The position numbers and the translations under genes were made by a program. Below, piece by piece: positions 1 to 37,801 of a stretch of 40,078 nt of DNA. Numbering within the stretch: the first letter of the stretch is position 1; every line of letters begins with the position of its first letter. Location of the stretch: positions 1-40,078 of the IMG/VR virus record IMGVR_UViG_3300034069_000373; one strand, written 5' to 3'. This stretch comes from a virus. Under the pieces are notes generated by a model. It saw only the letters and a program-made list of their open reading frames with translations. It was not told where the DNA came from and ran no database searches.

Positions 1-141
1 CAGAGATGACCCTATAGGCAAGGGTGTTCGCCGATTCAAGTCGCTTCATGATCAGAACGGCGCAGAGTCGTCCAAGTCGTCAAAGCCTGACGACGGGCGA
101 GGCGCTGGTGCAGGCGGGCGGCTGGCCTGACGCGGCGCGGG
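1..141. repeat. Terminal direct repeat, left copy (identical to 39938..40078); circular-closure overlap
   Basis: I aligned the first 141 nt (cagagatgaccctataggc...gacgcggcgcggg) base by base against the last 141 nt of the window. The repeat cuts through two genes (SSB-like 3' end and wHTH 5' end). Confidence 0.95.
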
Positions 142-339
142 CGCCGATGTCTGCTGCTCCTTTCGCTTGACCGACACACTGAAGAACTTTCCGTTCTTGC
201 CGTCTTTCAACCAAGCGTCAAAGAAGTACTCAACGCCCTCCACGTTCAGCGAACCCGTATACCCAGGCTGGCTGTCTTTGGTCTTGCGCTCATTCTTGAA
301 CAAGGCGCCCCTGTTTGTGTTGTCAAACTGCTGTGTCAT
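52..339 (-). CDS. Putative ssDNA-binding protein (small OB-like N-terminal part, Pro/Ala-rich linker, acidic C-terminal tip)
   Basis: 95-aa ORF with ATG preceded by caaggaagaaaa. The C-terminus ...SGFDDLDDSAPF resembles the acidic SSB/gp2.5-type tail (bacterial SSB ends in DDDIPF). The N-terminal RGALFKNE..PGYTG..AWLK..GKFFSVSV pattern recurs in small phage proteins annotated as SSB. Confidence 0.55.
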   Translation of the reverse strand: MTQQFDNTNRGALFKNERKTKDSQPGYTGSLNVEGVEYFFDAWLKDGKNGKFFSVSVKRKEQQTSAPAPRQASRPPAPAPRPSSGFDDLDDSAPF

Positions 340-1043
340 TTTTCTTCCTTGTTGTGCTGAGATGGCTGGGAGAGAGCGGCGTCGTAAAGCTCGGCAAAAC
401 TCATGACATCGAACAGCGCGAGAATCTCGGCATCGAACTTCTCCCGGAAGTCGGGGATGCCGGCCCCGACAGCGGTGCGAATCATCGCGCGCAGGGCTTC
501 CACCTTATGAAGAAGCGCACGGTGCTGCTGGAGATAGCGGGCGGCCATCTTCACGCGGCCGATGATGACGTGCTCGCCCTCGATGTCGGGCCACGGGGAG
601 GCGAAGCTGGCAGTCACACGGCGAAGCTCGTCGATCTGCGCCTCGCTCAGGCTCGGCACCTGTGCTGCGCCCGCCGGGGCTTCGGGCGCTGCTTCCTCGT
701 CTGTTTCGCCAAGGTAGACCGAGCCTTCAGGGTCGGCGGTGTAGACCGCGTACAAGCCCTCGCCGGAGTGTCCAGGCCCGTTCATCAGCGCGATCTCGCA
801 CGGCTCGCCGCCGAACATTTCGAGCAACTCGGTCGCTTGCTTGAAGTCGACCGTGATCTGTAAGGGCACCTGTGCTGCGCCCAGAGAGGCACGAGCCATT
901 TTCCAGCCAACGAATCGATCTTCGTCGCGCTGATGGATGTATTTACCATCCAAAAAGAGATGGCGTTCGAATATTGGGACGCCAGCTTCGACCATTGCGG
1001 CTTCGAACAATGCGCGCTCATCGGCGCTAGAGGGATTCGTCAT
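336..1043 (-). CDS. Mosaic three-module protein P1 (unknown function) with two GAAQVP linker repeats
   Basis: I chose the ATG at 1043 (MTNPSSADERA...) because it follows acaaggagaaagaaa; the tracked ORF extends to 1082. It contains ...ARASLGAAQVP... and ...PAGAAQVPSLS... and ends in AALSQPSQHNKEEK. Its stop overlaps the next start (ATGA). Confidence 0.8.
   Translation of the reverse strand: MTNPSSADERALFEAAMVEAGVPIFERHLFLDGKYIHQRDEDRFVGWKMARASLGAAQVPLQITVDFKQATELLEMFGGEPCEIALMNGPGHSGEGLYAVYTADPEGSVYLGETDEEAAPEAPAGAAQVPSLSEAQIDELRRVTASFASPWPDIEGEHVIIGRVKMAARYLQQHRALLHKVEALRAMIRTAVGAGIPDFREKFDAEILALFDVMSFAELYDAALSQPSQHNKEEK
361..381 (-). repeat. Shared 3' gene-boundary block in P1 (21 bp, reverse complement of 8787..8807)
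   Basis: cgccgctctctcccagccatc encodes AALSQPS just before the stop and the next RBS. Confidence 0.9.
643..677 (-). repeat. Linker repeat copy A (35 bp, exact reverse complement of 8323..8357; core 655..672)
   Basis: The reverse complement reads ccggcgggcgcagcacaggtgccgagcctgagcga and encodes PAGAAQVPSLSE in P1. Confidence 0.9.
864..890 (-). repeat. Linker repeat copy B (27 bp, exact reverse complement of 8092..8118; core 865..882)
   Basis: The reverse complement reads gcctctctgggcgcagcacaggtgccc and encodes ASLGAAQVP in P1. Confidence 0.9.
1012..1034 (-). repeat. Shared 5' gene-boundary block in P1 (23 bp, reverse complement of 7885..7907)
   Basis: ccctctagcgccgatgagcgcgc encodes PSSADERA. 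It is preceded in both genes by cacaaggagaaag...atgac. Confidence 0.9.
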
Positions 1044-1233
1044 TTTCTTTCTCCTTGTGTTTACAGCCGATGCACCCTGCATCGACCTTTCCTAAATCGC
1101 TTTTGGTGTATTCGCACACTGGGCTCATGCGGAACGGGGTTAGCACCATCTCGCGGGTTCCGTCTGGGCTCCAGCCATCTTGTTGGGGGATCTTGCTCAC
1201 GAACGGCTTTCGGTTGTGGCACCCGTTAGCCAC
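1027..1233 (-). CDS. Hypothetical protein (68 aa, GTG start)
   Basis: The ORF is in the track. Its GTG start overlaps the upstream stop (GTGGCTAA). It fits a chain of translationally coupled genes. Confidence 0.5.
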   Translation of the reverse strand: MANGCHNRKPFVSKIPQQDGWSPDGTREMVLTPFRMSPVCEYTKSDLGKVDAGCIGCKHKEKENDESL

Positions 1234-1369
1234 GCTTCAGCCCGATCGCATCGCCTGTAATGCACAGAGCACGCCAGACAATTTCGTCGTGCACGTATAT
1301 GCCAGCAGCGACGAGGTCGAGGATTCGCATGGCCTCCCGCTCCTCTTCGTTCATTGCGGTGCGGGTCAT
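1226..1369 (-). CDS. Hypothetical small protein (47 aa: MTRTAMNEEEREAMRILDLVAAGIYVHDEIVWRALCITGDAIGLKRG)
   Basis: Below the 60-aa track cutoff, so I translated it by hand. It has an ATGA overlap with the stop of 1366..1632, and it fills an otherwise unexplained gap in a coupled operon. Confidence 0.5.
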   Translation of the reverse strand: MTRTAMNEEEREAMRILDLVAAGIYVHDEIVWRALCITGDAIGLKRG

Positions 1370-1632
1370 GCTGGCGTGCTTTCACGGGTCGGCACTGGAA
1401 GCCATGTCAGCGTTTCGTCGCGGGCGTCGTCACCGGGATCGCGGATGGGGCGGAGCCAACGATCCCCGATACCTATATGCCCCGACCTAGCAGGCGGCTC
1501 TACATACCACATCGGTCCAACGTTAGACATTTCGTCCCACCGACGAACACAACGAACAATAGAACCAATCGCATTTGCAGCATGCGGGGGGCAAGCTACA
1601 ACAATAGCCAGATCTCCTGGTTTGCAGTTCAC
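1366..1632 (-). CDS. Conserved phage hypothetical protein (88 aa, GTG start, MNCKPGDLAIVV...)
   Basis: The ORF is in the track. The N-terminal KPGDLAIVV..N.G.IV motif recurs in prophage proteins of unknown function. GTGA overlap with the upstream gene. Confidence 0.65.
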   Translation of the reverse strand: MNCKPGDLAIVVACPPHAANAIGSIVRCVRRWDEMSNVGPMWYVEPPARSGHIGIGDRWLRPIRDPGDDARDETLTWLPVPTRESTPA

Positions 1633-1787
1633 GTCGCTTCTCCTTGCTTAGCTTGCGGCACACGAGCCGCCTTGATCTTCTTGCGAATCCACACCACGCC
1701 GCCGAGCTGCTTGAGCTTTTCCCAGTCTTCAGCAGTGAGGCGGATGGCGCTGGGCTTCAGCGGCTTTTCAGGTTTAAGTCTTGGCAT
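1629..1787 (-). CDS. Small basic protein, possible ribbon-helix-helix type DNA binder (52 aa: MPRLKPEKPLKPSAIRLTAEDWEKLKQLGGVVWIRKKIKAARVPQAKQGEAT)
   Basis: Hand translation (below the track cutoff). There is no Shine-Dalgarno sequence. The ATG lies 6 nt downstream of a good -10 hexamer, which suggests a leaderless mRNA. The stop overlaps the next GTG start. Confidence 0.5.
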   Translation of the reverse strand: MPRLKPEKPLKPSAIRLTAEDWEKLKQLGGVVWIRKKIKAARVPQAKQGEAT

Positions 1788-1793
1788 GTTGCT

Positions 1794-1821
1794 AGTGTAG
1801 CGCATGCCGTAGCGCGGTCAA
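1794..1821 (-). promoter_or_regulatory. Sigma70-like promoter TTGACC-16 nt-TACACT, 6 nt upstream of the ATG at 1787 (leaderless geometry)
   Basis: The minus strand reads TTGACCgcgctacggcatgcgcTACACTagcaacATG. The -35 overlaps the stop of 1818..2249. Confidence 0.5.
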
Positions 1822-2249
1822 CTATTTCTTTTCAACGCCAGCAACTTCTCCCTGATGTGCGCCGGCATCGCGGATGCTGCAGCACGGTCCTTCAGGATCT
1901 TCTCTAGCGCAGGATCGACGAGAGGCTTCTCAACGATGGCGACGGGCTCCCAGTCGAGCCACCGCTCTTGGTTGAGGTACACCACAGGCGCACAGATAAA
2001 CGCCCCGTTGTCCTTGAGCCAGTCCGGCTGCGTCTTCATCCATTCGACGTGCTGGACGATCAGGGAGGCACTGGCTGCGCATCCTTTGGTTGCCCACTTG
2101 TCGAGTGACTGCTGCTTGGCGACTTTGCGGGTTCCGCTAGGCCACGCTGCCCAGAAGTCTACGAAGCCGTGTGCGGCGTTCAGGAGTCCTCTGGCGGGGG
2201 TTGTGCGGGGGGTGGTGATGTGATCGCCGAAGAGGTCAAGCATTGGCAT
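1818..2249 (-). CDS. Conserved phage protein of unknown function (143 aa)
   Basis: I chose the ATG at 2249 (MPMLDLFGD...), or alternatively 2243, because it overlaps the stop of the upstream gene; the tracked ORF extends to 2315. The FWAAWP..K..K..S..KW ... VYLNQERWLDW pattern resembles phage proteins often found near replication genes. No function can be assigned by eye. Confidence 0.65.
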   Translation of the reverse strand: MPMLDLFGDHITTPRTTPARGLLNAAHGFVDFWAAWPSGTRKVAKQQSLDKWATKGCAASASLIVQHVEWMKTQPDWLKDNGAFICAPVVYLNQERWLDWEPVAIVEKPLVDPALEKILKDRAAASAMPAHIREKLLALKRNS

Positions 2250-2679
2250 CTCCGGTCGCCCTAGCAATGGCTTTCGCAAGCGCATCACCGGCAGGCGTGC
2301 CGATAAGGTCAACACATTCGTCCAATGCTTTCTGAGCAGCGTTTAACAGCGTCCGTTCTGCACTCACCATCAACCGCTCAAAGTCACGATTGAATATCTC
2401 AGACGCGTGTACCGAGAGTTCACCACCGTCTTTCACGATCCAATCCCCTATCTCCAAATGAACCCACTCGTGAGCAAGCTTCACGATCAGGCAAGGAGGG
2501 GAGTCGTCCACAAAACGGCAGTGTCCATTCCCGATCGCTTCGAGTAGCCAGCGAGGCCTGTCACCACGCGACCCCGCGTAATTGTTGAACCTGTACGCCT
2601 CCACTCGCACTGCTTTCCGCATGAACGGACCGTACGTCTCGGTGCCGTGCGATCCGTTTTTCTCAACTGTCATTCCCAT
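2236..2679 (-). CDS. Hypothetical protein (147 aa)
   Basis: The ATG at 2679 (MGMTVEKNG...) is preceded by cacaaggagaaagcc, the same RBS context seen at several other genes here. Confidence 0.65.
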   Translation of the reverse strand: MGMTVEKNGSHGTETYGPFMRKAVRVEAYRFNNYAGSRGDRPRWLLEAIGNGHCRFVDDSPPCLIVKLAHEWVHLEIGDWIVKDGGELSVHASEIFNRDFERLMVSAERTLLNAAQKALDECVDLIGTPAGDALAKAIARATGDANA

Positions 2680-3010
2680 GGCTTTCTCCTTGTGAATCAA
2701 ACACCCATAGACCGGTCATAGAAGGGGTTGGGTGATCCCCCTCCTTTTCTCTGCTGCTGGCCTGATACCTGAATAGTCTTCATCGAGAGCTGACGATTTA
2801 AGAGAGTGGTGAGTTCTCAAGCACGTCCCTGCTTCCCTGGATCACCCTTTGACGCTCTGTTCACAAACTTAGATGGCCGTCCGTTGTTTGCCTGGCCCCC
2901 TTCAGCGCCAGTCTTTTCAGGTTCGGGGTTAGGTTCCGTCTCCGTGTTTCTTGAGTGCAGCCCATGCAGGCCCAGTTGCTAACGCGCTCTGACGAACGGC
3001 AATCGCAGAC

Positions 3011-3095
3011 GAAAAAAAGCCAGTTACTGCTGCTCTCCGGTCGCACCCTCCCTGTGACAGGAGGCGGAAAGCATGAGTAACTGGCTTCAATTTTC
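3011..3095. terminator. Long imperfect hairpin with U-tracts on both strands (bidirectional intrinsic-terminator-like element)
   Basis: The arms gccagttact (3019..3028) and agtaactggc (3076..3085) enclose an inner stem cctcc/ggagg. The plus strand has A7 at 3012..3018, giving T7 after the stem on the minus strand. The plus strand reads ttcaatttt after the stem. The element lies directly downstream of the minus-strand gene 3153..3371. Confidence 0.65.
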
Positions 3096-3152
3096 GGTGT
3101 GCGACGACCGATGCCAGAAGTATCGCCTATGCGGCGAGGTCAGTCAACAGGC

Positions 3153-3371
3153 TCAAACAGAAAGCTCCATGACGACGATGGGGTCGTACCATTCTGCGCA
3201 AAAAAGGACACGGCAACGCTTGTCGTTCTCCGTCATTGCGTCTAGTGCCTGCCGCATTGCCTGCTTTGCGTTAGGCGCATCTTCGCCCTGCTGCTTCCAG
3301 CGGCGATGCCCATAGCGGCGCGTCTGTCCGACGTAGTAGCCCGATGGTGCGTGAATGTGAACGCGAGTCAT
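3153..3371 (-). CDS. Hypothetical small protein (72 aa)
   Basis: The ORF is in the track. ATGA overlap with the upstream gene. It is the last gene before the hairpin/terminator. Confidence 0.55.
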   Translation of the reverse strand: MTRVHIHAPSGYYVGQTRRYGHRRWKQQGEDAPNAKQAMRQALDAMTENDKRCRVLFCAEWYDPIVVMELSV

Positions 3372-3559
3372 TTCGTCTCCTTGCTAGCGATGCCACGCTT
3401 GATGCTATCCCGCCTGTGAGCGTCCGCACGCCCGTTCTCTTGGTTGACTACATCGATGGCGCCCTTGAGGCGTGTGGGCGGTTGTAGGCCGTTCTTTCGG
3501 TACTGCGTGTCTGCGCGGGGCGGGGTGATGGTGAACTCACCGGGGGTGAAGGCGTTCAT
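3368..3559 (-). CDS. Hypothetical small basic protein (63 aa)
   Basis: The ORF is in the track. ATGA-type overlaps on both sides. Confidence 0.55.
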   Translation of the reverse strand: MNAFTPGEFTITPPRADTQYRKNGLQPPTRLKGAIDVVNQENGRADAHRRDSIKRGIASKETK

Positions 3560-4005
3560 GCTGGGACTACCTTTCCTAGTCCTGCATTACGCAAAGCCCG
3601 TTCGTTGTTAAAACCATAAGCAACGAGGCAGATCGGAGCGCCAGAGTTGGCGAGGGCACGGCGTCCGTCAACGAAATGGAAATGCGGGCGCCCCTTCATA
3701 AACAGGATCGCGTCTGCAACATCCCAGATGCACTCGTAGAACATGGCTGTCTCGGTGCGAGCTGGGACTAGCGCAATGCCATTGCCATGTTGCACCAGCT
3801 TGCGAAGCCACTTCACAGCCTCTCGGCCGAAAGGAGGGTTCAGCCACACGCGGCCCTCCCACTTCTGAACAAGACCATCGTCAGCTTTGCTGAAGTGCTT
3901 CGTGGCAAGATCCCACGGCCGCACAACTGGCGCGCACGGGTCAAGGTCGAACGTGCCAAGCGCCGAAACGATCGCCGGCGGTGTTAGCCACTCGTCGTTT
4001 TTCAT
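3556..4005 (-). CDS. Phage Dam-family DNA N6-adenine methyltransferase (149 aa)
   Basis: I chose the ATG at 4005 (MKNDEWLTPP...). The sequence EWLTPP...FDLDPCA...W.GRVWLNPPFGRE...W matches the small phage N6-adenine MTase family, with NPPF as catalytic motif IV. Confidence 0.8.
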   Translation of the reverse strand: MKNDEWLTPPAIVSALGTFDLDPCAPVVRPWDLATKHFSKADDGLVQKWEGRVWLNPPFGREAVKWLRKLVQHGNGIALVPARTETAMFYECIWDVADAILFMKGRPHFHFVDGRRALANSGAPICLVAYGFNNERALRNAGLGKVVPA

Positions 4006-4031
4006 GGCGGCACTTTGATGAGATGAAAGGC

Positions 4032-5045
4032 TCACTTCACACCTCCAACACTGCAAGACGGAGCCACGACAGCCGTGCAGCAGCACGACACCGGACGGTC
4101 ACGGTAGACGGTGCGCGTCCGGGTCTTGTAGACGACCTCCGGGGGCAAGGTGACGGTGTTTGTTTGAACGACGACGGCGGGTCGAATCGGCATCTGGCAA
4201 GCCACCGTGCTGATTGCGGTCACAAAGCCCTGCACCTGAACCTGCCCGCTCGCGCCGGCCTGTCCGCCAACATCTTTCACGAAGCCACCAAAGCTGAATC
4301 CGGCGCCGCTCGCGCGCGACAGTGCTTCGATTCGAATGATTGACTGTTCGCCCCAGACGATCGTGGTCTCGATCAGGGAACCATCTGGAGCGAAGCCGGT
4401 CGGCACTTTCTCGATGATGTAGCGCTTCTCACCTTCGGGCACGTCCTTCGCATACTCATCCCAGCCGGCGAACTGACGCTGATCGGGCGTGAACGTATTG
4501 CGCATGATCGCGTACACCGGCTCGCGGTAGATCGCCTGCCGGGGGCCGCATGCCGTCACGGTCGGTTGCCCGCCCACGCCAGCCATCGGCGGCAAACCGG
4601 GCGCGAACAGCACGGGCGGCAGGAAAACCGAACCTCGGCTCTTATCCACGTATGTGTCGCCGCTGCCGGATTGGTTGCCTTGGATGACGACGCCGGACGA
4701 GTTCTGGTTCTGGTTCGTCAGGGACTGGCCTTGCTGCTGTTGCTGGCGCTGGGCTGCAGATCCGCCCAGGCCGACGCCACCGGCACCGCCGAGGGCCTGC
4801 GCGTTGCCACCTGCTGCGAGGGCTGCAGACTGCGCGGCTGCGTTGGATTGAGCGCCAGCAATGCCGACGCCGATGCCAGCGCCACCACCACCTCCGCCTC
4901 CGCCGTTGTTGGTTGTGCCGCCATTGGTGCCGCTAGGGCACAGACCGCCTGCGTAGTATTCCTTGGGGATGCCATCAGCGCAGTTGGTCGCATTGGCAGC
5001 GCCCATGCAGGACAGGACGACGAGACAGATCAGAGTGTTTTTCAC
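4032..5045 (-). CDS. Secreted Gly/Gln-rich protein of unknown function (337 aa, GTG start)
   Basis: The N-terminus (M)KNTLICLVVLSCMGAANA|TN looks like a Sec signal peptide with an AxA cleavage site. It is followed by a G8 run, GA-rich and Q5-rich low-complexity sequence, a roughly 190-aa globular part, and a Cys-rich tail PVSCCCTAVVAPSCSVGGVK. GTGA overlap with the exonuclease stop. Confidence 0.75.
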   Translation of the reverse strand: MKNTLICLVVLSCMGAANATNCADGIPKEYYAGGLCPSGTNGGTTNNGGGGGGGGAGIGVGIAGAQSNAAAQSAALAAGGNAQALGGAGGVGLGGSAAQRQQQQQGQSLTNQNQNSSGVVIQGNQSGSGDTYVDKSRGSVFLPPVLFAPGLPPMAGVGGQPTVTACGPRQAIYREPVYAIMRNTFTPDQRQFAGWDEYAKDVPEGEKRYIIEKVPTGFAPDGSLIETTIVWGEQSIIRIEALSRASGAGFSFGGFVKDVGGQAGASGQVQVQGFVTAISTVACQMPIRPAVVVQTNTVTLPPEVVYKTRTRTVYRDRPVSCCCTAVVAPSCSVGGVK

Positions 5046-5665
5046 AGGACACCTTGGATGGTTGAGAGTGTTTGTTGAACTAGCGAAAGAAATTCAGCGC
5101 GCCGCTCAGAGAGGCGAGAAAGCTCCGTTGTGCAATCTTCGCGGTGTAGCCGATGTGTGATGAGTTGCTTTTCGTCTGGGAAATCAGCGCAATAGCTGAC
5201 GAAATCGACCCAGTTGCGGTTAGTGCAGTCAAGGTGACCCACCATCTGCCAGCGGTAGGCGGGGTCGAAGCTGCTGCGAAGCAGTGTTGCGTAGTGGACT
5301 GGAGCAATTACCGACTTGATTTCGATGACCCCATCGTCGCCGACAAGCCCATCAGGCGAGTCACCGTATGAGTACCAGTCAAAAAACCCCCCGTTTGATA
5401 CGGCAACGTAGTTCTCTTCTTCGTAGAGCATTCGGGCGACTGGCTCCTGTTCGTGACCACGCTCCGTATGCTCATTGGAGAAACTGAATTCGGCTTTCTT
5501 GCCAGTGGCGATTTCAAGGGCGATTTGCAAGGCGTACCGCTTTGCAGGTTCACCGAACGCCTTGCCATCGTTTGCCATGAAGCATCCGAAGTTTGAGCCA
5601 GTCACCTTGCCGCAGCGCAGAGCGGACCAAGCATCCGAATTCTGTTCAACGTCGTGGAAGATCAC
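5042..5665 (-). CDS. YqaJ-like viral recombinase-domain exonuclease (lambda Exo/PD-(D/E)XK superfamily)
   Basis: ...HDVEQNSDAWSALRCGKVTGSNF... is the typical YqaJ N-terminus, and ...DGVIEIKS... is nuclease-core like. I chose the GTG at 5665 because it overlaps the upstream stop (GTGA). An ATG at 5716 is the alternative start. Confidence 0.75.
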   Translation of the reverse strand: MIFHDVEQNSDAWSALRCGKVTGSNFGCFMANDGKAFGEPAKRYALQIALEIATGKKAEFSFSNEHTERGHEQEPVARMLYEEENYVAVSNGGFFDWYSYGDSPDGLVGDDGVIEIKSVIAPVHYATLLRSSFDPAYRWQMVGHLDCTNRNWVDFVSYCADFPDEKQLITHRLHREDCTTELSRLSERRAEFLSLVQQTLSTIQGVL

Positions 5666-6204
5666 GATACCTGCCCCTGATCCGAGAACACTTCGGGCGC
5701 TTTCTCGGCTTCGCACTCGTCCATGAGTTGTTCTTGGTGCTCACGACTCATGGAGGCGCGGGCCAGCACTTGAGAAAGATCGCCGTCGCGCTTGAACGCA
5801 GCCTTTGCAAAAGCCCATGCTTTCGTCATTTGCGGCGTCACCGCACGGCGTTCCGGCGCTTTCGGGCTGATCCGCAGACCGTCGACAGTATCCTTGGCAA
5901 ACCGCACGTTGTGGTCTACGTAGACGGTGATGCGCATATCACGCCAGTCATCGATGAAAGGCGAGCCAGCCAAGCCCTTCATGGTCTTGCTGTTGGTCGC
6001 GTTCAAAATCATGGGCTTCAGCTTCTCGCCCGGTCGAAGTTCTTGCTCCACGAAATGAGCCGTGTTGAAGCGGTCCTTCGTTTTCTTGGTGCGGTCGATT
6101 TCGAGGGTGACATGGCTGACAGTCAAAATCGTCGGCTCAACGATGTCGGCGCTGCTCAGGTATGGTGAGTCGAACGCCTTGCGATAGTGTGTTTTTTCAG
6201 TCAT
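5662..6204 (-). CDS. Conserved phage protein of unknown function (180 aa)
   Basis: The ORF is in the track. The pattern YRKAFDSPYLSSADI...LTV..V...KPMILNATNSKT...W....ITVYVD..V.....V.GLRI recurs in phage recombination/early modules. No function can be assigned by eye. Confidence 0.7.
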   Translation of the reverse strand: MTEKTHYRKAFDSPYLSSADIVEPTILTVSHVTLEIDRTKKTKDRFNTAHFVEQELRPGEKLKPMILNATNSKTMKGLAGSPFIDDWRDMRITVYVDHNVRFAKDTVDGLRISPKAPERRAVTPQMTKAWAFAKAAFKRDGDLSQVLARASMSREHQEQLMDECEAEKAPEVFSDQGQVS

Positions 6205-6210
6205 GTCAGT

Positions 6211-6351
6211 TCACTTGAAGTAGATAGCGGCAGCGATGAATCCGAGGATGAGCGCCATCGTCACGAGATAGCCGGCCAGAGCACGGCCAAGGCCGGTGCA
6301 GTTGACGCGCTCTTCGGGGAGTTCGGCGGGGATGGTGTTGGGGTCGATCAT
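6211..6351 (-). CDS. Small membrane protein (46 aa, C-terminal TM segment)
   Basis: The ATG at 6351 is preceded by caaggagacgccaa and has an ATGA overlap with the upstream stop. The hydrophobic C-terminus is LAGYLVTMALILGFIAAAIYFK. The longer tracked ORFs in this region have junk-like sequence at their 5' ends. Confidence 0.55.
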   Translation of the reverse strand: MIDPNTIPAELPEERVNCTGLGRALAGYLVTMALILGFIAAAIYFK

Positions 6352-6818
6352 TTGGCGTCTCCTTGTTGGGAGAGAGCGGCGTGCAGCGCGTCTGAGCGCT
6401 TGTCGTATCGCTCGGAAAATCCGGCCAATGCGAGCAGGATTTTCCCGACCTTGCTGTCGCGATCCGCATCCCAATGAGCATGAGCTTCTCGTGCCATTTC
6501 AATGACGCCGCGAAGAACGTCGAGGCTCGGCACCTGTGCTGCGCCCAGAGAGGCGCGAGCCTCGGTAACGACCTTTTCAAGCCGGTGCATGAACCATGCA
6601 GAACGGTACGCGTCCGCGTCGTCGTATTCGTAGATGAAGCGATGAAGCTCGGTAGCCAAAAGCGAATCAGCGTCAGGGCCGTAGCCGCCTTCTGCCACTC
6701 GCTTCGCGATGAAGTCAGAGTTTTCAACACGCATCGCGCATTCGTTCCAGCTAGGCAAGTTGCTGGCCGGTGCTGGCTCGGGCTCGCGCTCATCAGCGCC
6801 CTTGATCGGCGCGATCAT
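6348..6818 (-). CDS. Mosaic two-module protein P2 (unknown function) with one GAAQVP linker
   Basis: The ATG at 6818 has an ATGA overlap with the upstream stop. The protein contains ...EARASLGAAQVPSLD... and ends in HAALSQQGDAK. Confidence 0.75.
   Translation of the reverse strand: MIAPIKGADEREPEPAPASNLPSWNECAMRVENSDFIAKRVAEGGYGPDADSLLATELHRFIYEYDDADAYRSAWFMHRLEKVVTEARASLGAAQVPSLDVLRGVIEMAREAHAHWDADRDSKVGKILLALAGFSERYDKRSDALHAALSQQGDAK
6367..6382 (-). repeat. Shared 3' gene-boundary block in P2 (16 bp, shared with the P1 block)
   Basis: The plus strand reads tgggagagagcggcgt, equal to P1 positions 366..381. It encodes AALSQ at the end of P2. Confidence 0.85.
6529..6559 (-). repeat. Linker repeat copy C (31 bp, exact reverse complement of 8087..8117; core 6529..6546)
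   Basis: The reverse complement reads ctcgcgcctctctgggcgcagcacaggtgcc and encodes ARASLGAAQVP in P2. It also shares gggcgcagcacaggtgccgagcct (24 bp) with copies A and E. Confidence 0.9.
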
Positions 6819-7003
6819 GGCTGGCCCCACAGCACCAGAGCAACCACCGCCAGCACAGCGCAGACGATCAATGCGCGCTCATGCCAAGGCAGCGGGGCGG
6901 GAGTGCATCGCTGGATGGCGACGAAATCACGGCACACGTCGTGCGAGGTTCGCGGGGTGATCGTGTGATCGAGGGGGCGGGTCAGGAAATCGGGGCGTTT
7001 CAT
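6815..7003 (-). CDS. Small protein with C-terminal TM segment (62 aa)
   Basis: The ORF is in the track. ATGA overlaps on both sides. Hydrophobic tail: ALIVCAVLAVVALVLW. Confidence 0.55.
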   Translation of the reverse strand: MKRPDFLTRPLDHTITPRTSHDVCRDFVAIQRCTPAPLPWHERALIVCAVLAVVALVLWGQP

Positions 7004-7314
7004 TCGTTCACCTCTGCGTTTTGTTGTGCGTATGCGTGGATCAGCTTGTCGACCAGAGCGATGGCCTCTGCGTCGCCTTCCATGGCGTGCTCCATGACGT
7101 AAAGGGCGAGACCTTCGACGTCTGGGGCGCCCTTGAGGTCGGTAGCTTCGACCAGCAGCTTTTCAGTCTCGAACAGCTTGCCGTCAAGGTTCGCCATGCC
7201 GTTGGCCTTAGCGCCATACAGCGAATCCTTGATCTGCGCTTCCATGCGGTCCTGCGCTTCGTTGAGCAGATAGACGTAATCGCCTGCTGCGTCGTTGGTG
7301 TCATCGCGGGTCAT
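7000..7314 (-). CDS. Acidic hypothetical protein (104 aa)
   Basis: The ORF is in the track. The composition looks protein-like and the gene has a coupled start and stop. Confidence 0.65.
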   Translation of the reverse strand: MTRDDTNDAAGDYVYLLNEAQDRMEAQIKDSLYGAKANGMANLDGKLFETEKLLVEATDLKGAPDVEGLALYVMEHAMEGDAEAIALVDKLIHAYAQQNAEVNE

Positions 7315-7517
7315 GCAAACTCCTTAGTAAGCTCATAGACGGCCAAGCCGATGGAGACGACTGCCGCGATGACGAAGAACCAATCGACCACGTTTTCCGA
7401 GGGCGTCGGCTCGGGCTCGGTAATGGGCTTTGCGCGCTCGATCGGATGGTTGTTGGCGGCGTGGACCTTGGCGCTGCGCACCGTGCGGTCGTAGCCGGAG
7501 AGATCGGGTGTTGTCAT
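7311..7517 (-). CDS. First gene of the leftward operon; small C-terminally TM-anchored protein (68 aa)
   Basis: The ATG at 7517 (MTTPDLSGY...) is preceded by cacaaggagcctta. The tracked ORF start at 7562 falls inside the predicted promoter. Confidence 0.6.
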   Translation of the reverse strand: MTTPDLSGYDRTVRSAKVHAANNHPIERAKPITEPEPTPSENVVDWFFVIAAVVSIGLAVYELTKEFA

Positions 7518-7557
7518 TAAGGCTCCTTGTGTGCAGCGTGATTGCTGCGGTAGACGA

Positions 7558-7587
7558 ATCATAACGGCATTCCGAATCCGTGCGCAA
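7558..7587 (-). promoter_or_regulatory. Candidate leftward early promoter TTGCGC-18 nt-TATGAT
   Basis: The minus strand reads TTGCGCacggattcggaatgccgtTATGAT. This leaves a leader of about 34 nt with an AAGGAG RBS before the ATG at 7517. Confidence 0.4.
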
Positions 7588-7598
7588 CAACTATTTTC

Positions 7599-7608
7599 GT
7601 GATCTCAC
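7599..7608. promoter_or_regulatory. GATC-containing dyad (GTGA-TC-TCAC) midway between the two divergent -35 elements; candidate operator
   Basis: The sequence gtgatctcac lies within a T/A-rich context (ttttcgtgatctcacaaa), centred between the -35 at 7582..7587 and the -35 at 7620..7625. Confidence 0.3.
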
Positions 7609-7619
7609 AAATAATCTAG

Positions 7620-7648
7620 TTGCAGACAGTTCGGTAGTCCGTTACGAT
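7620..7648 (+). promoter_or_regulatory. Rightward promoter TTGCAG-17 nt-TACGAT, 6 nt upstream of the ATG at 7655 (leaderless geometry)
   Basis: The plus strand reads TTGCAGacagttcggtagtccgtTACGATaggcgcATG. There is no Shine-Dalgarno sequence before the ATG. Confidence 0.5.
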
Positions 7649-7654
7649 AGGCGC

Positions 7655-7882
7655 ATGCACTACACCCAACACTCCCCAGATTGGCCTGCACTCATCAAGC
7701 AGCTCAAGGCCATCGGCATACAGCAAACCGAGATTGCTGCGCACTGTGGCGTCTCCAACTCAACGCTGAGTGAGCTTGTCACCAAGCGCGCTAAGCGAGA
7801 CCCGGGTTACTTGATCGGCGTTCGGCTGGTCGAGCTACACAAGAAGAACCTTCGCAAGATCAACCACAAGGAGAAAGCATGA
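7655..7882 (+). CDS. Small HTH (Cro/CI-XRE-like) transcriptional regulator (75 aa)
   Basis: MHYTQHSPDWPALIKQLKAIGIQQTEIAAHCGVSNSTLSELV... has a helix-turn-helix signature (Q.EIA...GVS..T.S). It is the first gene of the only plus-strand operon. ATGA overlap with the next gene. Confidence 0.7.
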   Translation: MHYTQHSPDWPALIKQLKAIGIQQTEIAAHCGVSNSTLSELVTKRAKRDPGYLIGVRLVELHKKNLRKINHKEKA

Positions 7883-8826
7883 CCCCCTCTAGCGCCGATG
7901 AGCGCGCCCCCCATCTGTTGCCGTGCCCGTTCTGCGGCGGCACGGCAGAGTTCACACCATACAAGCGAGACGGATTGACGCTGAAGTGCGGCACGCTCGG
8001 ATGCGTGCAATTTGACCAACGCACGCGCCACTCCGTCGACTGGTTGCGCGACTGGTTGCGCGACAGGATGATCGACCACTGGAACACTCGCGCCTCTCTG
8101 GGCGCAGCACAGGTGCCCGTACTTAGCATCAAGAAAAGCGAGTGGGAAGTTCTGTCGCCGGAAGCGCAGGCCAAATTACTTGCGATCACGGGCGCCGGGA
8201 CTCGCAACCTTCAGCGCTCCCAAGCTGCCGCCGACATCGCACGCGTGCCGTTGTGCAGACAGCCGCCCGAAGGCTGGACCTGCAGCCGAGGCGAAGGCCA
8301 TGAGGGACCGTGTGCAAGCAGTCCGGCGGGCGCAGCACAGGTGCCGAGCCTGAGCGATGAGCGCGACGAAGCCGAGAGCGCTTACATTGCACTGGCATTC
8401 AACTACGTTGAAGCTCCCATCGGTTCTAGGGACTGGGATCTGTTTTGGCACGGCTGGAAGGTTCGCGCCTTGCTTGATGCAGCACAGACTCAAGAAACTT
8501 CGGCGTTGACCGCCGAAGTTCTTCGACTGCGCGATCTGGCTGCTACTTGCTATGCGGGACTCGGTGCGGAATGCGACCTGCCGGAAGTATGGCTCGACGC
8601 ATTGCTGGCAGCCTCCGAAGGCCAAGACTTCTCAACCAACCAGCTTCTTCCTATCTGCGCAGCGGAGGCGGCGCCCCTGAGCGATTCGGAGTTGCTCAAT
8701 CTTGCCGTTGACTTTCGCTCAGAACGCGAGCACTGCATGCAGCGGTACACGGAGTTTGACGAAATTGGATTTGCGCGAGCAGTCATCGCCGCTCTCTCCC
8801 AGCCATCCCAGCAGGAGAAAGCATGA
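7879..8826 (+). CDS. Mosaic three-module protein P3: N-terminal Lar-like zinc-ribbon module plus two unknown modules joined by GAAQVP linkers
   Basis: MTPSSADERAPHLLPCPFCGGTAEF...KCGTLGC...HWNTR fits the Lar restriction-alleviation family pattern (CPFCGG...C..C...WN.R). This is followed by ASLGAAQVP, a Cys-rich middle module, PAGAAQVPSLS, and a C-terminal module ending in AALSQPSQQEKA. Confidence 0.8.
   Translation: MTPSSADERAPHLLPCPFCGGTAEFTPYKRDGLTLKCGTLGCVQFDQRTRHSVDWLRDWLRDRMIDHWNTRASLGAAQVPVLSIKKSEWEVLSPEAQAKLLAITGAGTRNLQRSQAAADIARVPLCRQPPEGWTCSRGEGHEGPCASSPAGAAQVPSLSDERDEAESAYIALAFNYVEAPIGSRDWDLFWHGWKVRALLDAAQTQETSALTAEVLRLRDLAATCYAGLGAECDLPEVWLDALLAASEGQDFSTNQLLPICAAEAAPLSDSELLNLAVDFRSEREHCMQRYTEFDEIGFARAVIAALSQPSQQEKA
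7885..7907 (+). repeat. Shared 5' gene-boundary block in P3 (23 bp)
   Basis: Exact match to the reverse complement of 1012..1034. Confidence 0.9.
8087..8117 (+). repeat. Linker repeat copy D (31 bp; core 8100..8117)
   Basis: ctcgcgcctctctgggcgcagcacaggtgcc encodes TRASLGAAQVP in P3. Confidence 0.9.
8323..8357 (+). repeat. Linker repeat copy E (35 bp; core 8328..8345)
   Basis: ccggcgggcgcagcacaggtgccgagcctgagcga encodes PAGAAQVPSLSD in P3. Confidence 0.9.
8787..8807 (+). repeat. Shared 3' gene-boundary block in P3 (21 bp)
   Basis: Exact match to the reverse complement of 361..381. Confidence 0.9.
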
Positions 8827-8942
8827 CCACCGAATCCATCCAGTCCCAAGACGAAGCCCTTTGCGGCCTGAGCCCTCTCGCCTTCATCGGCGTGATGCTG
8901 TGCGAGCTGATCGCTGCACTGTTTGCGAAGGACAAGCCATGA
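8823..8942 (+). CDS. Small hydrophobic protein (39 aa: MTTESIQSQDEALCGLSPLAFIGVMLCELIAALFAKDKP)
   Basis: Hand translation (below the track cutoff). ATGA overlaps with both neighbours bridge P3 to the HNH gene. Confidence 0.45.
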   Translation: MTTESIQSQDEALCGLSPLAFIGVMLCELIAALFAKDKP

Positions 8943-9601
8943 ATGAGCACGCATCGACAGCCAGCGCACAAAATCGCCGTCGAGCTATTTACTCTTCAAA
9001 GGTGTGCGCCTTCTGCGGGGAGTGTTTTAGCCCTGCTACCTCAAAGCCGAAAACGTGCAGTTGGCAATGCCGTTTTTTGTTGCTGCAGAGAGACTTTGAA
9101 GGGAAAGAAGGATGCTGGGAATGGCCTCAAAGCAGAAACATAGTCACCGGCTACGGGCAGTTTCATGCAGAAGAGGGCGGGAAGCGAAATCAAACGGCTC
9201 ACCGCTTGTCGTTTCTGTTGAACAAAGGCGGCATCCCAGACGACCGGCTAGTCATGCATTCTTGCGATAACAGGGGATGTTTTAACCCCGCACACTTGTC
9301 CTTGGGGACCCATCTGGACAACTGTCACGACAAGATCAACAAGGGCCGTCAGAAGGAGCCGAAGCGCAGGAAGTTAGAGGACCATCACAACTCTAAGCTC
9401 ACGCTTGCTGCCATAGCTGAAATCCGTTCCTGCAAAGGCAGGGTGCGAGAGTTTGCCAAGAAGTACGGCGTCAGTACGTCGTGCATCAACGATGCTAGAG
9501 CTGGCGTGTCTTGGTCGACTGCTCCGCAATTCTGCGGACCGCATCTCCCGATCGCTTTGAGCCGGCGCTTGAACCGAGCCAAAACTGAACAACTTGCGTA
9601 A
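8939..9601 (+). CDS. HNH homing endonuclease (HNH_3-type) with N-terminal Cys4 region and C-terminal HTH-like region
   Basis: I chose the ATG at 8939 (MNEHAS...). AHRLSFLLNKGGIPDDRLVMHSCDNRGCFNPAHLSLGTHLDNCHD is a classic HNH_3 motif. By eye the GC content is lower than in the neighbouring genes. Confidence 0.85.
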   Translation: MNEHASTASAQNRRRAIYSSKVCAFCGECFSPATSKPKTCSWQCRFLLLQRDFEGKEGCWEWPQSRNIVTGYGQFHAEEGGKRNQTAHRLSFLLNKGGIPDDRLVMHSCDNRGCFNPAHLSLGTHLDNCHDKINKGRQKEPKRRKLEDHHNSKLTLAAIAEIRSCKGRVREFAKKYGVSTSCINDARAGVSWSTAPQFCGPHLPIALSRRLNRAKTEQLA

Positions 9602-15239: not shown

Positions 15240-16520
15240 TCAGTTGACCACGTACCAGCCTTTGCCATCGTTCTCGTAGGTTTTGCCGCCTACGGTCTTG
15301 CGAGTCGGTGCAGCGGTCTTGGGAGCGCTCTGAGACTGAGCGATAGGCGCGTTGCCGGCGTTGTTCTTGAACCCTTCAATGACCAATCGTCGGTTAGCCG
15401 CCTTTTGCTCAATCACCGCCTTCCCATCTCCAGGCTGCGGGAAGTATTGCTTCTTGGCGTTGTCAAACTCATCCTTGCCAATGGCTGCGCCTGACTCTTG
15501 ACGCAGCACAGCGTTGACGAAGTCGCGTTGCGCTTGCTCGGCTTTCTGTCCACTCTCTCCGAGCATCATGTTTGCGCCAGCCCCGAGCACGCCGCCGACC
15601 AGTGGGATGTTGCCTGCAGACTGCTTGGCATTGACTGCAGCCGGGGAGTAGCTATCGCCCAGCTCAGACAGGATGCGGTCAGCCTCTTGCGCACGACTAC
15701 CGAATGTCGCGGACTTGCCCTGGAATTCGGTGGGCGATGCCTTCTTGGCTGCTGCAGGATCTGCGGGGCCACCGGGAATAAAGGCAAGCGTACCGTCTTC
15801 GTTCTGGCGGTAACCAGAGGGGACGCGTCCATTCTGGTTCGCTTCGGTGGCTCGCCTGTCGGTCAGATCCTGACCGCGCATCGTGACGCCTTGACCCTGA
15901 AGCGCCGTGGATTGGGTCATGTCCTGGCCGCGTCGCGTCACGTCCTGCCCAGCAAGCGCCGTGCTCTGCGTGAGATCCTGACCGCGCATGGTGATGTCTT
16001 GGCCGCGAAGCTGCGTCTGGTTGGCGAGGCGATCCTTTGCGCTGAGCGTTGCCTGTGCAAACTGCGCGACACCGTTCGGGTCGTAAGTGGGGGAGAACTT
16101 GGACGTGTCGATGCCAAGCTGGTCCTTAAGGATGGCCAAGCCTTGCGTGTAGCTGGGCTGGTCTTTGACCGTGCCAACGACACTAGAGATGGCATCCAGT
16201 TGCTTGATGCGAAGTTCAAATTCGCTGGTCGACGCAGCGCGGGCGTCCTTGTTGGCCGCAGCGTTCGACGTAATGACGGAAGCAGCTTGGGGGAAAGCGC
16301 CCACACCCTGAAGAGCAGCGGCTTTCTGTTCAGCGGGGAGATTGACGAATGCAGGGTCCTGCACGACTTTTAGAAGCATGTTCTGCGACTGAGCCTCACG
16401 GTCGGCACGCTCGTTCTGCCCTTGGTAGGCTTTGATCTGATATGCCTGAGCAAGCGACGCCAGCGGGTTGATCTGCTGGGGCGCTTGGACTTGGCTATAG
16501 ATGTCGCTGCTGACGGGCAT
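15240..16520 (-). CDS. Internal virion/ejection protein (426 aa) with RGQD(I/L/V/M)T repeats
   Basis: Its position between two other internal proteins mirrors the gp7/gp20/gp16 block of P22-like phages. It is Gln/Ala-rich with internal repeats. Confidence 0.6.
   Translation of the reverse strand: MPVSSDIYSQVQAPQQINPLASLAQAYQIKAYQGQNERADREAQSQNMLLKVVQDPAFVNLPAEQKAAALQGVGAFPQAASVITSNAAANKDARAASTSEFELRIKQLDAISSVVGTVKDQPSYTQGLAILKDQLGIDTSKFSPTYDPNGVAQFAQATLSAKDRLANQTQLRGQDITMRGQDLTQSTALAGQDVTRRGQDMTQSTALQGQGVTMRGQDLTDRRATEANQNGRVPSGYRQNEDGTLAFIPGGPADPAAAKKASPTEFQGKSATFGSRAQEADRILSELGDSYSPAAVNAKQSAGNIPLVGGVLGAGANMMLGESGQKAEQAQRDFVNAVLRQESGAAIGKDEFDNAKKQYFPQPGDGKAVIEQKAANRRLVIEGFKNNAGNAPIAQSQSAPKTAAPTRKTVGGKTYENDGKGWYVVN
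15861..16010 (-). repeat. Degenerate coding repeats encoding (M/R)RGQD(I/L/V/M)T(QSTAL)
   Basis: The peptide is LRGQDITMRGQDLTQSTALAGQDVTRRGQDMTQSTALQGQGVTMRGQDLT. The corresponding cctgaccgcgcat / gtcctggccgcg units are visible in the DNA. Confidence 0.7.
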
Positions 16521-36773: not shown

Positions 36774-37025
36774 TCACAAAGAGATGCCGAAGATGAAAGC
36801 AAGGGCCAACCAAGGCGATAAATCTTCCTTCTTTTTCGCGGCGTCAACAAGCTCTTGATGCCTACGCTCTTCAGCAGCTGCTGCGTCTTGTTCCGCGTAT
36901 TTTGCGATTAGTTGCGCTTTCAAGTGCTCAGGAGCAGCAGTTATAGCTTTCGCCCTCGCCTCATGCTTGGCAACCTCTCCCATAACTGCGCTTACAGCAG
37001 CCATAGCAACGAATAACCCAATCAT
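36774..37025 (-). CDS. Membrane protein (83 aa, N- and C-terminal hydrophobic segments)
   Basis: MIGLFVAMAAVSAVMG...SPWLALAFIFGISL. ATGA overlap with the Lar-like gene. It is the last gene before the terminator. Confidence 0.6.
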   Translation of the reverse strand: MIGLFVAMAAVSAVMGEVAKHEARAKAITAAPEHLKAQLIAKYAEQDAAAAEERRHQELVDAAKKKEDLSPWLALAFIFGISL

Positions 37026-37210
37026 GCCTTTCCCTCTTCACTGATTCGCTCATTCCATATCTCTGCAGCCTTTTCGATGTCTTCATCCCTTGGCCCCTGC
37101 GATCCACACTGAGCGCAGAAACCTGCATAGCCACTCTTGCCGCCGAACTCGTCACCGCCAACGTAAGTGTTGTTCGAGCCGCAGAAGGGGCAGGGCAGCA
37201 GTTCGGTCAT
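37022..37210 (-). CDS. Lar-family restriction-alleviation-like zinc-ribbon protein (62 aa)
   Basis: MTELLPCPFCGSNNTY...FCAQCGSQG....IEKAAEIWNER matches the Lar_restr_allev pattern (CPFCG...C..CG...A...WN.R). Confidence 0.75.
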   Translation of the reverse strand: MTELLPCPFCGSNNTYVGGDEFGGKSGYAGFCAQCGSQGPRDEDIEKAAEIWNERISEEGKA

Positions 37211-37374: not shown

Positions 37375-37550
37375 GTTGACTCCTTCTGTCCTAGGCCGTC
37401 GCCTTCGGCCAATTTTTGCATGCTCAAGTAGGTTTCAGACTCTTTCTGAGCTTGCTGCATCCAAGCGTTCAAAACGCGCTGCTCAAGCAGAGCGCAGATG
37501 TGCGCATGCGTTTGAGCTTCAACAAAGATCTCTGGTAGCCCGACAATCAT
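37371..37550 (-). CDS. Hypothetical small protein (59 aa)
   Basis: The ATG at 37550 (MIVGLPEIFVEAQ...) is preceded by aaaggagacgac and overlaps the upstream stop (ATGA). Confidence 0.55.
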   Translation of the reverse strand: MIVGLPEIFVEAQTHAHICALLEQRVLNAWMQQAQKESETYLSMQKLAEGDGLGQKEST

Positions 37551-37801
37551 GTCGTCTCCTTTGCGCTGGCTTCTAGGGAGCGAATGGACAAAAGGCACTG
37601 ACGAATGGCATGAACATGCGCAACCTTACCCATACTAGTGAGCGGCTTTCCTAAAAATAGCTTTGCGCATTCATCACGTGCCGATTCCAGCGCCTGCTTG
37701 CGGGAGGCTTGCCATGCCGCATCCCAGATTACCCGCAATTCGTTAGGCTGGCCTGCGCACTCGCGATACCACTCGGAATAGGCTTGCTGGCTCTTGTCCA
37801 T
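37547..37801 (-). CDS. Hypothetical protein (84 aa; the GTG at 37804 is an alternative start)
   Basis: The ORF is in the track. The start overlaps the stop of the 58-aa ORF (GTGATG). Confidence 0.6.
   Translation of the reverse strand: MDKSQQAYSEWYRECAGQPNELRVIWDAAWQASRKQALESARDECAKLFLGKPLTSMGKVAHVHAIRQCLLSIRSLEASAKETT

Follow-up and report, generated by a model that had tools for sequence, protein, structure and literature searches.

In-frame DNA connectors at the domain junctions of a small family of mosaic phage early genes

The window analysed here is the whole 40,078-nucleotide stretch of the IMG/VR virus record IMGVR_UViG_3300034069_000373. Three of its genes, P1, P2 and P3, carry at their domain junctions short DNA blocks, the linkers or connectors, built around an 18-bp core (GGGCGCAGCACAGGTGCC) that encodes the peptide GAAQVP. 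The three genes have one format, i.e. leader, module, linker, module and so on up to a tail, and they form with their relatives a small family of "beads-on-a-string" early genes of Burkholderiales phages and prophages. Sequence comparison indicates that the connectors are conserved as DNA, beyond the peptide alone. We propose, with a probability that we put at roughly 70%, that they are in-frame homology patches through which general or phage-encoded homologous recombination would exchange domain cassettes.

Five exact copies of the 18-mer are present in the window, three on the minus strand and two on the plus strand. A scan of the window for GGGCGCAGCACAGGTGCC with up to two mismatches returned nothing beyond these five copies, and 100 dinucleotide shuffles of the window gave 0 matches, for a chance expectation of 0. 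All five cores are translated in the frame and sense of their host gene as GGC GCA GCA CAG GTG CC(N), i.e. GAAQVP, as a preliminary description of this DNA had claimed. That description had also distinguished two flavours of extended block, and the distinction holds over exact stretches of 27–35 nucleotides (nt). Flavour 1 is represented by copy B (860-895, minus strand, core 865-882; ARASLGAAQVP) and copy D (8087-8122, plus strand, core 8100-8117), and flavour 2 by copy A (643-677, minus strand, core 655-672; PAGAAQVPSLSE) and copy E (8323-8362, plus strand, core 8328-8345). Copy C (6523-6561, minus strand, core 6529-6546) is the hybrid that had been announced: its left arm is of flavour 1 and D-like (B/D type) and its right arm (gagcct) is of flavour 2 (A/E type). 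The longest pairwise identities are 35 nt exact for A and E (643-677 and 8323-8357; or 95% over 40 nt), 31 nt exact for C and D (6529-6559 and 8087-8117) and 27 nt exact for B and D (or 94% over 36 nt). A sixth, decayed linker lies in P3 at 8464-8494 on the plus strand (CGCGCCTTGCTTGATGCAGCACAGACTCAAG, RALLDAAQTQE) and agrees with the flavour-1 block in 21 of 31 nt. The module called GSRDW precedes it, and in the relative P0007 an intact linker follows that same module. The small dyad pointed out earlier in the core appears irrelevant, no hairpin being consistent among the copies. Folding the five copies as RNA gave differing structures with z-scores of -1.2 to +0.4 for four of them, only hybrid copy C beating its shuffles, and the linker element matched no Rfam family and no tRNA.

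The comparison of linkers covers 11 contigs: the window, L009, L001 and eight contigs that were found by protein similarity only and are therefore unbiased for codon choice. The case of blocks restricted to this single genome, which had been considered beforehand as a possible refutation, fails: the ten other contigs hold 27 further copies, for a total of 32. Over these 32 copies the codons for G-A-A-Q-V are GGC GCA GCA CAG GTG at 156 of 159 positions, the exceptions being one CAA and two GTT, and A-S-L is written GCC TCT CTG in 13 of the 14 flavour-1 copies. In the window GCA makes up 24% of the Ala codons, TCT 13% of the Ser codons and GTG 36% of the Val codons; with this usage the codon set has a probability of 0.007 per copy, and five agreeing copies one of 1.7e-9. 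Four chance occurrences of AAQxx in unrelated open reading frames (ORFs) of the same contigs use other codons. Some 18 nt are conserved throughout the copies; the block extends to about 30 nt in flavour 1 (CGCGCCTCTCTGGGCGCAGCACAGGTGCC), and in flavour 2 to about 22 nt, to which a semi-conserved right arm is added (GAGCCTGAGCGA).

Between the window and its relatives the linkers are 96–100% identical over 22–37 nt, against 72–78% for the homologous genes, so that descent alone is no explanation. Copy A, for example, is identical over 35 nt not only to copy E but also to L009 (4832-4866); copy B is 97% identical over 31–35 nt, and copy C 100% identical over 30–33 nt, to blocks of L143, L144 and L009. 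When P1 is aligned with the related protein gene P0148, the leader (26/26 nt) and the linker (28/28 nt) are identical and the module body between them is poorly conserved. Codon counts give the same disparity: identical amino acids are written with the same codon at 158 of 246 positions (64%) in homologous module bodies versus 112 of 114 (98%) in the linkers of the protein-ascertained contigs (Fisher p=5e-15). The identity at the DNA level, synonymous positions included, is thus shown by these codon counts.

Relatives of the mosaic genes were reached by several routes. Protein searches with P3, with the relative P0008 and with P1 and P2 together led to the same-format proteins P0007, P0008 and P0148. 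A profile of the five linkers run against 1.84 billion representative proteins retrieved 13 proteins at E<=1e-3, all with the leader and one to three linkers, and with the tail in all except P0155. Thirteen representatives among 1.84e9 proteins make this family a narrow one. At the DNA level, an exact scan of genomes identified a prophage (L009) with three linkers in a metagenome-assembled genome (MAG) of Janthinobacterium lividum. It is the only related hit among the 31 matches of the exact 18-mer in 596 Gb of genomes, where our own estimate of chance matches is about 17–30. In IMG/VR two exact matches were obtained, only that of L001 being related, and in the metagenome collection, from which the source contig is absent, all 23 matches are due to chance (wrong frame, no ORF or unrelated context). 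Degenerate back-translated queries in IMG/VR gave three matches for SLGAAQVP, all by chance, and 83 for PAGAAQVP, nearly all by chance and only L001 related. Save for L001 and L009, exact-DNA searches of large collections were uninformative. Most of the PAGAAQVP matches (IMG/VR loci L037-L118) correspond to one recurring off-frame motif, PPPPPAGAAQVPSARRKLVVPPP, present in numerous viral contigs, which is distinct from the linker and probably represents another frame or strand of an unrelated conserved gene. Among GenBank phages the early region has no relative at the nucleotide level, nor did P1 or P2 match anything there by tblastn. The named relatives of single modules come from Variovorax, Comamonas and Stagnimonas, so that, judged from these homologies, the hosts are probably Burkholderiales, with at least one gammaproteobacterial exception.

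Cutting 16 of the proteins at their linkers yields 51 modules in about 40 crudely defined families, 34 of them singletons at the threshold chosen, and shared modules are found in different contexts. The ERALFEAA module (family 1) is N-terminal in four proteins, i.e. P1 and its homologues P0148, P0151 and P0153, with a different module behind it in each. The Lar-like zinc ribbon opens P3 and P0154 and takes second place in P0008. P0007 and L001 begin with the GSRDW module, which P3 has in third place, and family 4 occurs with three different pairs of neighbours. Homologues of the P3 modules other than the Lar-like one were found in P0002-P0007. About 60 proteins from prophages, those of Variovorax and Comamonas among them, contain the N-terminal module of P2, in N-terminal, internal or C-terminal position. 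Four proteins contain the C-terminal module of P2, and over 20 differently built proteins the middle module of P1. Homology stops at the linker both for the N-terminal module of P2 and for the middle module of P1. In P0069, P0070 and P0074 the former is directly followed by the latter, which is the product expected of a crossover between copies C and B. All arm combinations of the linker exist (ASLxPA 7, ASLxPSL 2, xAGxPA 6, xAGxPSL 9) and, together with the hybrid copy C, this fits crossovers inside the core. The expectation that one DNA block would join many different modules is thus confirmed in the relatives, and these comparative patterns support the idea of portable in-frame recombination joints put forward in the preliminary description.

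P1 (336-1043, minus strand, 235 amino acids (aa)) is composed of the leader, module 1 (ERALFEAA...GWKMA), linker B, module 2 (ITVDFKQATELLEMFGG...), linker A, module 3 and the tail. P2 (6348-6818, minus strand, 156 aa) has a leader variant (MIAPIKGADER), a first module (NSDFIAKRVAEGGYG...HRFIYEYDDAD), linker C, a second module (HWDADRDSKVGKILLAL) and a tail variant (AALSQQGDAK). P3 (7879-8826, plus strand, 315 aa) has the leader, the Lar-like zinc ribbon, linker D, a module, linker E, the GSRDW module, the decayed linker, the LAATCYAGLGAECDLP module, a C-terminal part and the tail. A 39-codon hydrophobic ORF (8823-8942, plus strand) lies between P3 and the gene of an HNH endonuclease and is ATGA-coupled at both ends.

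The ends of the three genes are also junctions. The 5' leader junction of P1 (1012-1045, minus strand) consists of a ribosome-binding site (RBS), the ATG and ACG AAT CCC TCT AGC GCC GAT GAG CGC G; in that of P3 (7874-7907, plus strand) the ATG overlaps the stop of an upstream helix-turn-helix (HTH) gene (ATGA). The two leaders form an inverted repeat and encode MT(N)PSSADER. The P1 leader is identical to that of L142 at 26 of 26 nt, in front of a poorly conserved module body. The leader junction of P2 (6785-6818, minus strand; ATC AAG GGC GCT GAT GAG CGC G) is a variant that is 93% identical to L009 5368-5395 and recurs in P0149 and P0157. At the other end, the 3' tail junction of P1 (336-384, minus strand; AALSQPSQHNKEEK and stop) holds the RBS and the ATGA overlap of the downstream gene, which encodes a protein resembling single-stranded DNA-binding protein (SSB), and that of P3 (8787-8826, plus strand) reads AALSQPSQQEKA and stop, with GGAGAAAGC ATGA. 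P1 and P3 have this tail in common at the DNA level (355-381 and 8787-8813; AALSQPSQ, ..GCT CTC TCC CAG CCA TC. CAG..). The P2 tail junction (6348-6381, minus strand; AALSQQGDAK and stop) is a variant, 93% identical to L009 4710-4739. The tails encode a Shine-Dalgarno-like GGAG and end in ATGA, the stop overlapping the start of the next gene.

P1, P2 and P3 had been described as otherwise unrelated, and this needs amending. Leader and tail are common to P1 and P3, P2 has variants of both, and BLASTP among the three proteins detects linkers, leader and tail and, apart from these, only a weak match of the N-terminal P1 module to the third one of P3; the module bodies are otherwise without similarity. 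With matches confined in this way, the view of the three bodies as uniformly diverged paralogs, another case in which the initial reading was to fall, is rejected. The AlphaFold model of P3 has a mean predicted local distance difference test (pLDDT) score of 72 and a predicted template modelling (pTM) score of 0.36. In this model linker 1 falls within a confident continuous helix (residues 54-83), and linker 2 where a disordered stretch ends. A floppy linker is not confirmed by it, so that the claim of domain junctions rests on where homology ends.

Concerning the cargo, the first module of P3 appears to be a Lar-like zinc ribbon, an assignment for which the sequence and model evidence is weak but concordant. 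It scores 24.3 bits against Pfam PF14354, under the cut-off of 28.6 (E=3.6e-5), and the precomputed Pfam matches of the collection do include PF14354 for P3; it matches PHROG 599 at E=2.7e-5. Lar proteins head the Foldseek list, with a TM-score relative to the target of up to 0.66 and a best E-value of only 0.02. The module reads LLPCPFCGG...KCGTLGC, to be compared with the CPFCG ... C..C of a four-cysteine Lar ribbon, and residues 11-40 are modelled with a pLDDT above 90. The statement that such a ribbon is one of the exchanged modules agrees with its changing position among proteins, the Lar assignment itself being weak. We also noted a stand-alone 62-aa Lar-like zinc-ribbon ORF (37022-37210, minus strand; MTELLPCPFCGS...) in a nin-like region, so that this phage has a Lar-like ribbon in two forms, free-standing and built into P3. 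The mosaic proteins comprise two to five unrelated modules each, over 134–325 aa, and a functional hint is available for the Lar-like module only. The likely cargo, with the Lar-like module, a DUF551-like module and many others, makes up a pool of candidate domains for host takeover or counter-defence. The proposed cassette shuffling of anti-defence domains thus stands as a pattern of module shuffling; there is no sign of a dedicated or programmed system, and the anti-defence part depends on one weak Lar-like call.

At least two other lineages appear, from their sequences, to use the same design with different connectors. In the second lineage, that of Lar proteins (mosaic genes at L147 695-, L148 5920- and L149 583-), the linkers are RRASPASAPEG and AAPTPPVSED, written CGA GCC AGC CCC GCG AGT GCG CCA GAA G and GCC GCT CCA.CC CCG CCA GTA TC. 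GAG, and the tail is AAMQEDKP (..ATG CAG GAG GAC AAG). These linkers are 95–96% identical over 26–40 nt versus 79–81% for the shared Lar domain; between L147 and L148, 40 nt are 95% identical behind different upstream modules. L148 also has an Acb2/Tad1-hairpin gene 1.2 kb upstream of its Lar mosaic gene. The third lineage is represented by L157, a prophage adjoining an integrase, with the mosaic gene P0123. There the two copies of an exact 28-nt direct repeat (AAPQQAAPA; 6180-6207 and 6381-6408) enclose the IDFKQATELLEMFGG module, and two further repeats agree at 93% over 30 nt (6715-6744 and 7033-7062). That the same module families are flanked by lineage-specific connectors favours a mechanism independent of sequence and argues against a sequence-specific enzyme.

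The genome in the window was assembled as a circle of about 39.9 kb, with positions 1-141 returning exactly at 39938-40078 as a terminal direct repeat of 141 nt. Its genes include those of a head closure protein Hc3, a DNA ejection protein, a Dam-type methyltransferase, an HTH regulator and the HNH endonuclease (8936-9601), as well as portal-like and large-terminase-like proteins identified by reading the sequence. Several genes could serve recombination. A YqaJ-type recombination exonuclease (5042-5716, minus strand; Pfam PF09588 E=1.6e-13, PHROG 149 E=1e-35) is a candidate enzyme for connector exchange, outside the repeat itself, and YqaJ genes lie beside the mosaic genes of four relatives (L150, L151, L154 and L157). 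The adjoining gene (5662-6204, minus strand) encodes a conserved 180-aa protein (PHROG 21613 E=7e-51, annotated as of unknown function; no Pfam match) and sits where an annealing protein would be expected, which makes it a candidate by gene position only. The small SSB-like protein (52-339, minus strand; PHROG 18154 E=3e-16) has an acidic C-terminal tail and is translationally coupled to P1 (ATGA). Pfam and PHROG for the exonuclease, and PHROG for the SSB-like protein, agree here with what had been read from the sequence. A NinG/Rap-like protein is encoded at 37994-38554 on the minus strand (Pfam PF05766 E=7.5e-41); this family is a structure-specific recombination endonuclease. The PHROG and Pfam scans, which covered the early-region and larger ORFs but for a few large virion-region ones, revealed no tyrosine or serine recombinase, integrase or invertase.

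Other features of the genome deserve mention. Another in-frame island of identity lies at 37688-37720 on the minus strand, in the ORF 37547-37804: its 33 nt (AAWQASRKQAL) are 100% identical to L142 423-455, the remainder of the two small proteins being unrelated, and the gene boundary 37541-37587 is 89% conserved. An intergenic island of 31 nt (3119-3149, minus strand) is 97% identical to L144 1802-1832, with unrelated flanks; it reads TTGACT-N17-GATACT, is sigma-70-like, and may be a conserved early promoter acting as another boundary block. A 337-aa glycine-rich protein with a signal-peptide-like N-terminus and no PHROG or Pfam match is encoded in the early region between the methyltransferase and the exonuclease (4032-5045, minus strand). 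Finally, imperfect periodic repeats, with periods of 33 nt and 54 nt, occur inside large virion or ejection-protein genes (16790-17047 and 15862-16016, minus strand).

If the connectors are in-frame homology patches, a crossover inside a connector could take place between co-infecting phages, with a resident prophage, or between copies within one genome. It would be catalysed by the host RecA or by the phage exonuclease, annealing and SSB functions together with Rap. A whole module would then be replaced, deleted, inserted or swapped without loss of the reading frame. In the window itself, recombination between the direct copies A and B or D and E would delete one module in frame, of 210 and 228 nt respectively; between opposed copies, one of A, B and C with one of D and E, it would invert the intervening segment and swap protein ends. 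A C x D event, for instance, would turn round a segment of about 1.6 kb with the divergent promoter region in it and produce chimeras of the P2 N-terminal with the P3 C-terminal part and of Lar with the P2 C-terminal part, the other ORFs remaining intact. Two effects would keep the connectors identical: movement continues only for modules whose connectors are intact, and each exchange copies the joint anew; a mutated connector would leave its module stranded, as at the decayed copy 8464-8494. [quoted passage not shown]

The peptide itself could be what is preserved, the linker being a helix cap, a hinge, a docking motif or the protease site of a mini-polyprotein, and its DNA identity a result of recent descent or gene conversion. 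GAAQVP is invariant, RASL prolongs the C-terminal helix of several different modules, the helix modelled at residues 54-83 would run on through linker 1, and processing into separate units has been proposed for large phage polyvalent proteins and shown for DdrB of bacteriophage P1 (PMC5512222). However, selection on a peptide cannot fix synonymous sites, at which agreement is nearly complete against 0.7% expected per copy, and the identity persists across contigs whose homologous genes have diverged to 72–78%; gene conversion between genomes would itself be recombination at the joint. Moreover a decayed copy is tolerated inside P3, other lineages place unrelated linker peptides around the same modules, and Pfam and PHROG scans revealed no protease encoded nearby. 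We therefore hold this explanation to be unlikely. A cis-acting element is a poorer candidate still, whether it were an mRNA signal (ribosome pause at an internal Shine-Dalgarno (SD)-like AGGUG, RNase site or hairpin) or a site of binding or cleavage, e.g. by the adjacent HNH endonuclease. Such an element would agree with a conservation that is at the nucleotide level and specific of strand and frame; by our own reading CAGGUG holds a 5-nt anti-SD match, and an HNH gene neighbours the mosaic gene both in the window and in L150. But the copies have no common RNA fold, no Rfam family and no start codon at a suitable distance, most relatives are without an HNH gene in the Pfam matches on record, and lineages with wholly different linkers display the same pattern, which a sequence-specific factor leaves unexplained. 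The related idea of a homing endonuclease was discarded, the HNH proteins beside the mosaic genes of the window and of L150 being unrelated to each other.

The orientation of the copies brings to mind a dedicated recombination of the shufflon or invertase type, which would switch architectures by inverting the segments between A, B, C and D, E. The copies do occur in both orientations within coding sequence (A, B and C on the minus, D and E on the plus strand) around the divergent promoter region, the C x D inversion would exchange the C-terminal parts of P2 and P3 in frame, and L144 also has copies on both strands. This is nevertheless very improbable: the scans described above, applied to the circular 39.9-kb genome, found neither a tyrosine nor a serine recombinase in the ORFs covered, the site is without a symmetric arm-core-arm architecture, each lineage has an unrelated linker sequence, and in L142, L143 and L151 the copies found are all in a single gene and in direct orientation. 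As for chance or an assembly artefact, the contig is metagenomic and 18-mers do recur fortuitously, with about 30 unrelated matches in the 596 Gb of genomes and 23 in the metagenome collection. Against this, none is expected in the window, all copies are in frame and in gene sense, the same blocks occur in independent assemblies from ENA, Logan, the Janthinobacterium MAG and IMG/VR, and the repeats (<=40 nt) are far below the 141-nt overlap of the assembly ends. The shuffles, the in-frame copies and this recurrence effectively refute the artefact.

The interpretation as homology patches for recombination is preferred on these grounds, and several points nevertheless weigh against it. We infer recombination at the connectors from comparative patterns only. 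The family is small, and its GAAQVP-type members all come from metagenomes or MAGs, several of them from the same studies. The universal core of 18 nt is below the MEPS, and for copies on different contigs the median exact block is 20 nt, with 31% of pairs at 23 nt or more; exchange across flavours should thus be inefficient. With a predicted helix through linker 1 instead of a floppy linker, the peptide may play a structural role. Part of the conservation of the leader and tail junctions could stem from their overlap with translation-initiation signals. Lastly, to account for identity by the sampling of mobile modules only is a second-order argument, and a direct function of peptide, mRNA or DNA site would also conserve the block.

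A bolder variant is that the locus is an actively used, recombinase-independent "shufflon". The copies are opposed on either side of the divergent early promoter region, so that inversions and deletions of segments, brought about by the phage exonuclease, annealing, SSB and Rap functions, would be appreciably frequent in each infection or induction. We hold this to be unlikely. If it were true, each burst would mix genomes encoding different chimeric early counter-defence proteins, a programmed combinatorial diversification of the anti-defence repertoire that goes beyond the footprint of rare exchanges.

The present connectors may be compared with several known systems. In lambdoid phages, the modular theory of Susskind and Botstein and the work of Clark et al. 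(2001) on HK620 reportedly proposed short linker or boundary sequences for modular exchange. There as here, short islands of DNA identity, proposed as substrates of homologous recombination, lie exactly at module boundaries between unrelated or diverged sequences, and the window also has islands at gene boundaries (the ATGA/RBS junctions) and at a promoter-like site. The classical boundary sequences are between genes, in contrast to connectors that are inside genes, in frame and several per gene, and in the whole of this gene family no junction is without one. Shufflons and invertible tail-fibre segments, e.g. Rci/sfx of R64 and Gin/gix of Mu, combine a dedicated site-specific recombinase with structured sites. 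They resemble the present case by repeats in coding sequence, in both orientations, and by protein ends swapped in frame; they differ by their need for a dedicated recombinase, of which the scanned ORFs contain none. The boundary-sequence idea and its status have been summarised, the usual objection being that conserved boundary sequences are missing at most junctions (PMC3029335).

In T-even adhesins, recombination at the His boxes of gp37 and the glycine-rich motifs of gp38 swaps specificity segments (Tetart et al. 1996, 1998, as cited in PMC3157838). As far as that citation goes, the likeness is in conserved in-frame motifs that part hypervariable segments, exchanges in or near the motifs yielding chimeric proteins; the motifs there are structural parts of one fold in one virion protein, whereas the connectors join unrelated independent domains of small non-structural early proteins and are conserved at synonymous sites. 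The PeSL (promoter-early stem-loop) cassettes of T4-type phages are flanked by promoter and terminator stem-loop repeats located between genes (Arbiol et al. 2010, PMC2839356). There too a short repeat flanks small non-essential genes in hyperplastic regions and mediates their shuffling, and direct repeats can excise a cassette; PeSLs are however intergenic and regulatory, while the connectors are coding, in frame and without a consistent hairpin. Polyvalent proteins unite two to fifteen unrelated conflict-related domains in one phage or plasmid polypeptide (Iyer et al. 2017, PMC5512222). With them and with domain mosaicism (Smug et al. 2023, PMC10684548) the mosaic genes have in common shuffled domains, possibly with counter-defence ones among them, and several unrelated domains per polypeptide; polyvalent proteins are typically large and often delivered (PMC5512222), and the present proteins are small. 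The words "linker" and "breakpoint" do not occur in the text of PMC10684548, nor "linker" and "shuffl" in that of PMC5512222, and neither paper appears to describe conserved nucleotide connectors at domain junctions.

Set beside these systems, the connectors amount to a standardised in-frame set, roughly of MEPS size, that serves small early-gene domains through leader, linker and tail junctions. Against the objection that boundary sequences are missing at most junctions, the locus stands as an unusually clean and compact counter-example, marked at every junction within genes and between them, and with it the linker hypothesis becomes directly testable through native versus recoded connectors. 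The connectors are also natural "standard parts" junctions for engineering chimeric phage proteins. The finding further suggests a simple rule to search for rapidly shuffled domains, i.e. in-frame exact repeats of at least 20 nt inside early genes.

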